In this document: one piece after another, positions 18,101-19,759 of the stretch
How positions within the stretch are numbered: the stretch's first letter is position 1
Layout of the letters: the number at the start of each line of letters is the position of its first letter
From: Stellaceae bacterium
GTDB taxonomy: Bacteria > Pseudomonadota > Alphaproteobacteria > ATCC43930 > CGMCC-115725
DNA: 27,724 bases
Assembly (NCBI GenBank): GCA_036264595.1
Contig: DATAQP010000172.1
Coordinates: 1 to 27,724 of the forward strand
Direction of reading: 5' to 3'
Program-made: the position numbers and the translations under genes
Notes under the pieces: generated by a model
Seen by the model: only the letters and a program-made list of their open reading frames with translations
What the model was told of the DNA's origin: nothing
Database searches by the model: none

Positions 18101-18502
18101 TCAGGGACAGCCGGGAACCGGAGGACCGCGATAGTCGGTACCGCCCGGCAGCCCCTGATGTAGGGGATCGGCGCAACGAATGGGTGCGGCGGCGGCATAA
18201 GGAGGCGGCGGTGCGCCGTATGGCGCGCCATAGGACGGGGCGGCGCTGCTCACGCGGCTGCCGCCGCAGACATAGGTGGCGACGCTCTGCGGACCGTTCG
18301 GCTGCACGCTCTGCAGATTCGCGTACATGCCGTATTGCTGGCAGTACCCGTCAGCCTGCACGTTCGCCTGCGCGACGTCGTTGCCATAGACTTGATAGGA
18401 AACGCTGGGCGGCGCCGCGGCGACGGCTTGGGGCGGTGGAGGTTGAGTGGCGCAGCCGGCCAGCAAGCCGAGGGCTGCGAGGAGCGAGAGGGTGGCGCGC
18501 AT
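18101..18502 (-). CDS. Small lipoprotein with paired cysteines, function unknown
   Basis: Lipobox LAGC (Cys17), GGAG RBS, further Cys at 54, 79, 110 and 132, Pro/Ala/Tyr-rich linker. Confidence 0.85.
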   Translation of the reverse strand: MRATLSLLAALGLLAGCATQPPPPQAVAAAPPSVSYQVYGNDVAQANVQADGYCQQYGMYANLQSVQPNGPQSVATYVCGGSRVSSAAPSYGAPYGAPPPPYAAAAPIRCADPLHQGLPGGTDYRGPPVPGCP

Positions 18503-18535
18503 GTCTTTTATTGCTCCGACTATGGTTCCCTGAAG

Positions 18536-18715
18536 CTAAACGCGCCATGCCGGTCGTTGTTCCCGGTCGAGCGCGGCACGCCACGCCCGACCAATCTCCA
18601 ATGGAGCTTTGCCGATCCGCCCGCCCCACGGATGGTCTTGTGCGCGAGCTTGCGCGGCGAGCGATCTCCCGGCACGGGTGAGCAAACCTAATGGGGCAAA
18701 GGCGAGCTTATTCAT
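18536..18715 (-). CDS. Possible 59-aa small exported peptide or gene remnant
   Basis: AAGGA RBS 7 nt before ATG 18715; MNKLAFAPLGLLTRAGRSLAAQARA-QDHPW has an imperfect signal-peptide pattern; preceded by an ECF-type promoter motif. The 3' end overlaps the 18539-18563 promoter. Confidence 0.3.
   Translation of the reverse strand: MNKLAFAPLGLLTRAGRSLAAQARAQDHPWGGRIGKAPLEIGRAWRAALDREQRPAWRV
18539..18563 (-). promoter_or_regulatory. EcfG/sigmaT-type general stress response promoter (exact consensus)
   Basis: GGAAC-N16-CGTT on the minus strand, 36 nt upstream of the lipoprotein ATG at 18502. Confidence 0.75.
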
Positions 18716-18745
18716 CGTCCGGTCCTTCGAATCCAGATTTCGAGG

Positions 18746-18771
18746 AACGGAGTCCAACAGGTTGTTGTTGC
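18746..18771 (-). promoter_or_regulatory. EcfG-type promoter, one mismatch
   Basis: GCAAC-N17-CGTT on the minus strand, 30 nt upstream of ATG 18715. The same bases also read GGAAC-N17-TGTT on the plus strand (18744-18769). Confidence 0.45.
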
Positions 18772-18860
18772 GCCGACGAATCAAGGCTAAGGATAGCGTG
18801 TGTCGACGGTATCGCACGGGGGCCAAGGTCATCCGCCTATACCTTCTGTTTAGTTTGCGT

Positions 18861-18885
18861 GAAACAAATTCGCGCATCCGTCGTT
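18861..18885 (+). promoter_or_regulatory. EcfG-type promoter, one mismatch
   Basis: GAAAC-N16-CGTT, 66 nt upstream of ATG 18952. Confidence 0.55.
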
Positions 18886-18951
18886 ATCCGCAACACGGAC
18901 ATTGGTTCGTGACGGAAACACACGCAACTTCCACCTGCACGGAGATAAGTG

Positions 18952-19197
18952 ATGAAACGCGTTGGATTTAAGCTGGTGATGGTAGTCGGCTTGCTTGCAT
19001 TGGCGGCTTGCGGTGAACGCACAGGCGATCGCGGCCTGAGCGGCGCCGGTATCGGCGCGGCGGTCGGCGCGGTTGGCGGCGCCTTGGTCGGCGCCCCGCT
19101 CGCCGGTGCGGCGATCGGCGCCGGTGTCGGCGCCGCGACGGGCGCGCTGACAAGCCCGAGCACGGTCGATCTCGGCAAGCCGGTCTGGGAACGTTAG
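18952..19197 (+). CDS. Glycine-zipper (YMGG/OsmB-like) small lipoprotein, copy 1
   Basis: GGAGA RBS, lipobox LAAC, GxxxG zipper GAGIGAAVGAVGGALVG...GAAIGAGVGAATGAL, ending VDLGKPVW. Confidence 0.9.
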   Translation: MKRVGFKLVMVVGLLALAACGERTGDRGLSGAGIGAAVGAVGGALVGAPLAGAAIGAGVGAATGALTSPSTVDLGKPVWER

Positions 19198-19208
19198 ACA
19201 GCGTTTCC

Positions 19209-19243
19209 GCTGACGCGCCCAGCCTCGGCGTGGGCGCGTCGGC
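19209..19243 (+). terminator. GC-rich hairpin after lipoprotein copy 1 (possible terminator)
   Basis: GCTGACGCGCCCA / TGGGCGCGTCGGC 13-bp stem; no clear U tract. Confidence 0.4.
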
Positions 19244-19425
19244 AATCTCTGGATCATCGGACGGGCTTCGGCCCGTCCGATATTCATGAATCGAGAAGCG
19301 ATAGAGCAGGATCCGGTACCAGGGCCGGACGTCTCTCCCGTCCTTCCATTCGCTGTGCCAAAACTCGCCGCAATAGATGCCAATGCGCGCCCCGTATTGG
19401 TGCCCCGAGCGCAATGAAATCCGCC

Positions 19426-19451
19426 GGGACCAATTCCAGCCACTCGCCGTT
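19426..19451 (+). promoter_or_regulatory. EcfG-type promoter, one mismatch
   Basis: GGGAC-N17-CGTT, 65 nt upstream of ATG 19517, essentially the same offset as for copy 1. Confidence 0.55.
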
Positions 19452-19516
19452 CACGATTGACGAACATTGGTTCGTGAAATCGACTGATGCCCAGTCCTCA
19501 CTCACGGAGAGCGGTT

Positions 19517-19759
19517 ATGAAACACATTGGACCTAAGCTGGCGCTCGCGATCAGCTTGCTGGCGCTTACGGCCTGCGGCCAGTCCGTCGGCGATCGCGGC
19601 CTGAGCGGTGCCGGTATCGGCGGCGCGGCGGGCGCTGTCGGCGGTGCCTTGGTCGGCGCGCCGCTCGAAGGCGCCGCGATCGGCGCCGGCGTCGGTGCGG
19701 CGACGGGCGCCTTGACCAGCCCGAGCACCGTCGATCTCGGAAAGCCGGTCTGGAAGTAA
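19517..19759 (+). CDS. Glycine-zipper small lipoprotein, copy 2
   Basis: GGAGA RBS, ATG 19517, lipobox LTAC; mature region almost identical to copy 1. Confidence 0.9.
   Translation: MKHIGPKLALAISLLALTACGQSVGDRGLSGAGIGGAAGAVGGALVGAPLEGAAIGAGVGAATGALTSPSTVDLGKPVWK

Follow-up and report, generated by a model that had tools for sequence, protein, structure and literature searches.

Three small lipoprotein genes with predicted ECF-sigma-type promoters form a lineage-specific islet between epmA and efp in a Stellaceae bacterium

Between epmA and efp of a Stellaceae bacterium lies an islet of small lipoprotein genes, one on the minus strand and two on the plus strand, which occupies positions 18101-19759 of the window (by which we mean the whole stretch of DNA analysed here, 27,724 nucleotides, an entire contig of a 3.9-Mb, 608-contig assembly with a completeness of 86.6%). 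The original prediction, made from the sequence alone, had described four genes for small exported proteins in this islet, each behind a promoter of the alphaproteobacterial PhyR-NepR-EcfG general stress response. The four motifs do occur where they had been placed, 36, 30, 66 and 65 nucleotides upstream of the ATG codons at 18502, 18715, 18952 and 19517, with GGAG or AGGA as a ribosome-binding site before every one of these starts. The stretch is also AT-richer than its surroundings, as had been claimed, with a GC content of 0.56-0.57 across 18600-19049 versus 0.63-0.70 in the flanks. Three of the four genes, those with a lipobox, are real, and the fourth is spurious; the module thus appears to comprise three genes, each with one promoter, instead of four.

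The minus-strand gene (18101-18502) encodes a lipoprotein of 133 amino acids from an uncharacterised family, with the lipobox LLAGC and four further cysteines. Its N-terminal domain of about 75 residues contains PPSVSY...YCQQYG, its C-terminus contains CADPLHQ..PGG.DY.GP.V.GCP, and no family matched it in Pfam or NCBIfam. The gene has a weakly positive coding score of 0.07 per codon. Every syntenic islet has a homologue, and so do 21 of 60 family genomes, the homologues being either full-length or limited to the N-terminal domain. On the same strand, at 18539-18563, the sequence GGAAC-N16-CGTT lies 36 nucleotides before the ATG and matches exactly the promoter motif of EcfG, a sigma factor of the extracytoplasmic function (ECF) type, namely GGAAC-N16/17-CGTT. 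Since the species representatives, three congeners, lack the islet, footprinting of this and the other sites was carried out on metagenome contigs, retrieved through close homologues of the glycine-zipper proteins described below. All six distinct syntenic islets display GGAACAA, a gap of 14-16 nucleotides and (C/A)GTTAGC, at 30-36 nucleotides from the lipoprotein ATG. Outside this syntenic context, GGAAC-N16/17-[CT]GT[TA] occurs 29-57 nucleotides upstream of 14 of 21 lipoprotein homologues, from at least six genera. This is the best-supported site of the islet and, as firmly as sequence alone allows us to say, a real and conserved promoter.

A family of paralogues of about 77 amino acids (seven loci, in several genera) has kept the N-terminal domain only, and its members have GGAAC-N16/17-CGTA 29-41 nucleotides before the ATG. 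The genome to which the window belongs shows no enrichment of this CGTA variant.

The two plus-strand genes, at 18952-19197 (81 amino acids, lipobox LAACG) and 19517-19759 (80 amino acids, lipobox LTACG), encode glycine-zipper lipoproteins of the YMGG/OsmB-like type. Their products are 80% identical, the genes being tandem paralogues; the second passes the PF13441 gathering cut-off of 28.9 bits with 34.1 bits, and the first falls narrowly under it with 27.2 bits. We retrieved 1201 homologues, which carry PF13441 and many of which are named OsmB by JGI. In E. coli, OsmB is a glycine-zipper lipoprotein induced osmotically and in stationary phase, under the sigma factor RpoS. The islet proteins are likewise small lipoproteins with a glycine-zipper (YMGG) core placed, in our prediction, under a stress sigma factor; this sigma is RpoS in E. 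coli and would be of ECF type here, however, and the shared part is the Pfam domain only. A literature search returned no paper linking 'glycine zipper' with EcfG.

Upstream of the first glycine-zipper gene, at 18861-18885 on the plus strand, GAAAC-N16-CGTT lies 66 nucleotides before the ATG; its counterpart upstream of the second, at 19426-19451 on the plus strand, is GGGAC-N17-CGTT at 65 nucleotides, which can also be read in the register GGACC-N16-CGTT. The two elements are homologous and belong to one duplicated unit, so that they are not independent, and the GCAAC motif, the remaining imperfect site, fronts no gene. Both points weaken the four-fold positional consistency on which the original prediction had built its case, and the support comes from conservation rather than from counting. 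Among 13 distinct syntenic upstream regions of glycine-zipper genes, 12 contain a GGGAC/GGACY block, a spacer of N16-18 and an invariant CGTT, 54-85 nucleotides before the ATG. The second promoter is an exact match to the consensus of the related islets, CCGGGACCAAT...GCCGTT, and the first aligns with the same conserved block. The only other conserved blocks in these upstream regions are an A/T-rich patch just 5' of the element, a palindrome of the type ACGAAC-N4-GTTCGT located 8-13 nucleotides past CGTT, and the ribosome-binding site. Because 12 of the 13 regions keep the element among so few conserved blocks, it is predicted to be functional. Conservation therefore upholds the claim of a promoter of this general type for the 133-amino-acid gene and the two glycine-zipper genes, with the qualification that the glycine-zipper sites read GGGAC/GGACY; it does not extend to the GCAAC site.

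The palindrome is imperfect in the first leader (ACGGAC-ATTG-GTTCGT, 18895-18910, plus strand, 9 nucleotides past CGTT), where it folds as a 7-bp stem within a leader whose overall fold is unexceptional (z = -0.8), and perfect in the second (ACGAAC-ATTG-GTTCGT, 19460-19475, plus strand, 8 nucleotides past CGTT). No other copy occurs in the genome; the syntenic islets have related ones. The palindromes may act as an operator or fold into a hairpin of the 5' leader; the idea of a genome-wide operator was discarded for lack of copies outside the islet.

Behind the first glycine-zipper gene, two strong GC-rich hairpins (19209-19289, plus strand, -59.7 kcal/mol, z = -7.2, none of 200 shuffled sequences as stable) form a predicted terminator, and terminator-like hairpins also follow the second gene, before the efp promoter region (19778-19860, plus strand, -55 kcal/mol, z = -3.7). 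Since the first terminator separates the two copies, the second gene would need a promoter of its own. A scan of the stretch for sigma-70 promoters gave no promoter-like site, and one weak terminator-like site, no more than expected by chance; a search of 17600-20150 against Rfam returned no family at E <= 1. With strong hairpins behind each glycine-zipper gene and no sigma-70-like promoter detected, we consider the islet genes as separate transcription units. In some of the related islets (among loci L198, L207, L210 and L211), a third glycine-zipper gene begins about 35 nucleotides behind the second, a spacing that suggests an operon.

The fourth gene of the original prediction, a frame of 59 codons at 18536-18715 on the minus strand, is no gene: it has a coding score of -0.42 per codon, when the median for the genes of this genome is near +0.40, and a GC content of 0.62 at third codon positions. 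It has no homologue in 60 family genomes, nor among 5.8 billion proteins except itself, and it is not present in the syntenic islets examined. The GCAAC-N17-CGTT motif before it (18746-18771, minus strand), 30 nucleotides from the ATG at 18715 and 213 nucleotides from the lipoprotein ATG, has no counterpart in any syntenic islet. Both the spurious frame and the motif fall in the spacer between the divergent promoters (18564-18860), which is the most AT-rich part of the stretch and has no match in the related islets or the rest of the genome; it measures 297 nucleotides here and 66 to about 230 nucleotides in those islets. Non-coding DNA has about 0.19 one-mismatch hits per kb, and at this density a single chance hit within the 449-nucleotide divergent spacer is unremarkable. 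GCAAC...CGTT sites are functional in S. melonis (PMC6599016). Here, the motif is probably a chance match or, at best, a second and distal promoter of the lipoprotein gene.

The use of the motif in the rest of the genome, a check that the original prediction had itself proposed, gave a divided answer. Expected counts in non-coding DNA were taken from spacers other than N16/17, and the non-coding set (749 kb, 19% of the genome) came from a crude, purpose-built gene caller. The whole genome contains 56 exact GGAAC-N16/17-CGTT sites, at a density of 0.041 per kb in non-coding versus 0.008 per kb in coding DNA. In the non-coding set, we counted 14 exact sites at N16 and 17 at N17, versus 0-6 at each other spacer length from 8 to 27; the 31 sites observed at N16/17 thus compare with about 6.5 expected, an approximately five-fold enrichment. 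Among the genes located 8-55 nucleotides downstream of exact sites are those for CsbD, Ku, DUF2188, DUF72 and LTXXQ proteins and for a further glycine-zipper protein. In S. melonis, Ku has been validated as a direct target of EcfG (PMC6599016). By analogy, the GGAAC-N16/17-CGTT regulon of this genome resembles the general stress (EcfG) regulons of Alphaproteobacteria. One-mismatch classes, on the other hand, stay at background, and we return to them below. In two congeners, motif counts were 85 versus 59 and 46 versus 118 for the reversed pattern, a control of different composition bias from which nothing was drawn.

Which sigma factor would recognise these promoters? Sigma factors encoded on contigs C405 and C469 of the assembly, together with a frameshifted paralogue on contig C378, match PhyR_sigma2 above the cut-off and the same NCBIfam sigma models. 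These candidate EcfG-type sigma factors are 37-39% identical to sigma factors encoded beside phyR in relatives. Other EcfG-like sigma factors of the family are multi-copy and poorly conserved, with no GGAAC motif upstream. The C378 copy (about 3857-4302, minus strand) is a paralogue of the C405 sigma that switches frame between region 2.1 and the remainder, and follows an unusually AT-rich stretch; the frame change reflects either a pseudogene or an error of assembly.

The response regulator PhyR is another matter. In this genome, the PhyR model NF006623 gave separate sigma-like or receiver matches only. No match with E <= 1e-30 came from the three congeners, whose completeness is 96-100%, and 15 of 18 family genomes in all were negative at this threshold, yet the model reaches about 350 bits in the three family genomes that are positive. 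In a sister family, every one of the seven genomes was positive, with scores of about 280-310 bits. A nepR-ecfG-phyR locus was not found either. Absence from an incomplete assembly is not proof of absence, and the PhyR-NepR-EcfG system that the original prediction had named is unconfirmed. An OmpR-type regulator encoded behind an exact site on contig C262 was considered as a disguised PhyR and rejected, as it consists of a receiver and a Trans_reg_C domain.

We favour, with a probability of about 0.68, the reading of a lineage-specific islet in which three genes for small exported lipoproteins are monocistronic, each with its own promoter of ECF-sigma type, served by an EcfG-like or an ECF26-like sigma factor and apparently without a PhyR switch. 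The 133-amino-acid gene would be transcribed from GGAACAA-N14-GCGTT, and the two glycine-zipper genes from GGGAC/GAAAC-N16/17-CGTT. These promoters would belong to the genome-wide GGAAC-N16/17-CGTT regulon or stand at its weak edge. The sigma would be either an EcfG-like ECF sigma or the ECF26-like sigma that is universal in the family (see below) and, PhyR not having been found, a PhyR partner switch would apparently play no part in its control. We infer that the three sites are active promoters, with transcription starting a few nucleotides past CGTT and expression raised under stress.

Several findings, on the promoters as well as on the regulator, weigh against this reading. At N16/17, GAAAC...CGTT was observed 6 times for 8.8 expected and GGGAC...CGTT 11 times for 7.6, neither with a spacing-specific excess, and GCAAC...CGTT 12 times for 10.6, which is background. 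These counts must be read with a non-coding set that is generous, as the gene caller overlooked some small genes. Since the imperfect classes show no spacing-specific excess, motif counting alone supports only the exact site. The original prediction had named an equal density of one-mismatch hits in background DNA as an argument against itself, and this is what we observe for the three imperfect sites; conservation alone rescues two of them, those of the glycine-zipper genes. The -35 consensus of these genes is, furthermore, stably GGGAC/GGACY and not a decayed GGAAC, which may imply a different sigma factor or a DNA-binding regulator, and among more distant glycine-zipper homologues only 4 of 30 have GGAAC-type motifs. 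No RNA run carrying the islet sequence was found either, the matches being limited to six soil DNA (metagenome) runs.

On the regulator's side, a PhyR protein from a member of the family, used as query, retrieved receiver domains only, in five near-complete relatives (the three congeners and two further relatives, 97-99% complete) and in this genome. NepR gave a single weak hit of 20 bits in this genome, inside a membrane anti-sigma factor, and no NepR-like open reading frame. The 'general stress response' label is thus owed to regulon content and not to the regulator.

That three imperfect classes lack a spacing-specific excess, with one-mismatch hits as common as stated above in non-coding DNA, could mean that none of the four motifs is more than a chance match in AT-richer intergenic DNA, the genes being expressed from unrecognised housekeeping promoters. 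We regard this as very improbable: three of the four sites are kept in position and sequence across diverged relatives, which contradicts chance for those three, and exact sites exceed expectation about five-fold at N16/17.

The behaviour of the glycine-zipper element lends itself to a different alternative, in which an ECF promoter serves the 133-amino-acid gene only, GGGAC...CGTT being the site of another factor or sigma and the leader palindrome the real control. The block never drifts to GGAAC in 12 sequences, its class is not enriched genome-wide, and the palindrome is conserved just downstream. Also, the nearest glycine-zipper homologues from another genus share only AAATTC...CCGTT...ACATT, without a GGAAC-like pentamer. 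However, the spacing of 16-18 nucleotides and the invariant CGTT fit an ECF promoter, and the palindrome, which occurs nowhere else in the genome, defines no regulon. Moreover, the four distant homologues mentioned above, two of them in a congener, have an exact GGAAC-N16/17-(C/T)GTT 31-35 nucleotides upstream. We therefore see this alternative as unlikely. A separate GGGACY regulon, also considered, found no support, with only four fitting sites in the genome.

Could the canonical response be at work, with PhyR and NepR present but missed, through divergence or the incompleteness of the assembly, and all sites being ordinary EcfG promoters? The motif equals the EcfG consensus (PMC3892343, PMC6599016), the regulon content is typical and the assembly is just 86.6% complete. 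Orphan NepR-like open reading frames score above the Pfam cut-off in two congeners (three loci), and PhyR is present in 3 of 18 family genomes and 7 of 7 sister-family genomes. Yet this genome, the three congeners and the two further relatives have lone receiver or lone sigma domains only, for a model that attains about 350 bits in positive genomes, and no NepR-like frame was found in this genome. The canonical response is in our view improbable, more so than control by the palindrome. In R. etli, S. melonis and S. meliloti (RpoE2), sigma-EcfG (ECF15) promoters have the same motif and spacing and lie within 100 nucleotides of the start (PMC3892343, PMC6599016). The sites at 36, 66 and 65 nucleotides before real coding sequences are likewise correctly oriented and within this distance; the GCAAC site, at 30 nucleotides, precedes no real coding sequence. 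Target kinds are shared too, with CsbD, Ku and small envelope proteins elsewhere in this genome. The differences are that no PhyR was found, near-complete relatives included, and no nepR-ecfG-phyR locus, that the islet glycine-zipper promoters keep GGGAC/GGACY, and that the EcfG-like sigma genes here are without GGAAC upstream.

The preferred reading leaves the choice between two kinds of sigma factor, and the second kind deserves scrutiny. On contig C469 (13018-14398), an ECF sigma gene is followed by a gene for a transmembrane anti-sigma factor of 295 amino acids, which overlaps the sigma stop codon and whose product has weak zf-HC2 and NepR hits at its N-terminus. About 52 nucleotides upstream of the sigma gene lies GGAATAA-N14-CCGTT, which is invariant in six genomes from three genera (this one and five orthologous loci) although its surroundings have diverged. 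All 61 family genomes searched have this anti-sigma, in single copy save for one genome in which the gene lies in two pieces on separate contigs. ECF26 sigma factors recognise GGAATA at -35 and GT at -10, are co-transcribed with an anti-sigma that has transmembrane and periplasmic domains, and overlap with ECF15 in motif; their known regulons are small (PMC6180224). A transmembrane anti-sigma gene in the same predicted transcription unit and a GGAATA...GT(T) promoter that would be autoregulatory are what we find for the C469 pair, which looks like ECF26 from context and motif, the group not being assigned by a classifier. As in the ECF26 pairs of S. meliloti (RpoE1/3/4/6, with EcfR), the promoter GGAATAA...CGTT is conserved and overlaps the ECF15 motif (PMC6180224); the islet promoters differ in having GGAAC or GGGAC, not GGAAT.

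The lipoprotein promoter, GGAACAA-N14-GCGTT, is essentially one -35 base away from the promoter of this ECF26-like sigma. The latter is as good a candidate for the islet as the EcfG-type regulator. Should it serve the islet promoters, or at least that of the 133-amino-acid gene, the module would be an envelope-signal regulon rather than part of a cytoplasmic general stress response. This would suit the envelope location of the islet products, the ECF26 consensus, the anti-sigma layout and the reported motif overlap with ECF15 (PMC6180224), as well as the occurrence of the pair in every family genome searched. This same ubiquity made a phyletic test linking the pair to the lipoprotein family uninformative. 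Cytoplasmic regulon members point instead to the EcfG-like sigma: the same GGAAC...CGTT precedes the genes for CsbD, Ku and DUF72, which are typical EcfG targets. In addition, GGAAT...CGTT is weakly enriched in this genome (12 sites observed versus 7.3 expected), known ECF26 regulons are small and not stress-general (PMC6180224), and the assignment of the sigma is of the kind just described. Control by the ECF26-like sigma seems to us less likely than not, and we rank it ahead of the other alternatives.

How did the islet come to lie here? On its left, epmA (16664-17722, minus strand) encodes the lysyl transferase of elongation factor P, a class II tRNA-synthetase-like protein identified by PF00152 (E = 1e-47) and synteny. 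On its right, efp (20049-20615, plus strand) encodes elongation factor P, with EFP_N, EFP and Elong-fact-P_C domains. In most sampled Alphaproteobacteria and relatives, epmA and efp are direct neighbours, normally across a short divergent intergenic region, and one congener has a gap of 177 nucleotides; the three congeners have no islet at epmA/efp. The divergently transcribed islet genes are thus an insertion, as had been proposed, because the two border genes are adjacent in most relatives, including this congener. The nearest relatives of the window, as judged by epmA and the glycine-zipper genes, are Stellaceae metagenome-assembled genomes. Related islets, on metagenome contigs, lie directly upstream of efp; one minus-strand lipoprotein gene (137-142 amino acids) is accompanied there by two or three glycine-zipper genes on the plus strand. 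At the DNA level these genes are 70-85% identical to those of the window, and the remaining intergenic DNA does not align.

The epmA-efp junction gathers variable cargo. Besides the islet itself, a gene for a TauE permease separates epmA from the lipoprotein gene in related islets, and another Stellaceae genome has an unrelated insert of 1.9 kb at this junction. On one metagenome contig (L205, 3016-3597), the efp frame diverges from all others beyond about residue 115, suggestive of a frameshift, and a run of N breaks the lipoprotein gene of the same contig.

ECF promoters in front of genes for small, stress-induced envelope proteins are a routine finding, and clusters of EcfG promoters before such genes are well known (PMC3892343, PMC6599016). 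The only point for specialists is the apparent absence of PhyR from most of the family despite the regulon signature, a point that rests on draft genomes. The islet is otherwise a clean case in which promoter conservation, and not motif counting, tells three real sites from one false, and the uncharacterised family of the 133-amino-acid lipoprotein is one that almost always travels with a GGAAC-type promoter. It is conceivable, in a proposal that we put forward only tentatively and hold to be somewhat less probable than its opposite, that a family-level lineage of free-living soil Alphaproteobacteria of the Stellaceae type has kept the GGAAC-N16/17-CGTT regulon, with CsbD, Ku, small lipoproteins and the islet, and has lost PhyR. 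If so, a stress-type sigma factor would be freed by something besides the PhyR-NepR switch, for instance by way of the ECF26-like sigma and the transmembrane anti-sigma paired with it, or of orphan NepR-like proteins that have another antagonist. This lineage would then be a natural test case for the control of an alphaproteobacterial stress sigma factor without the partner switch.

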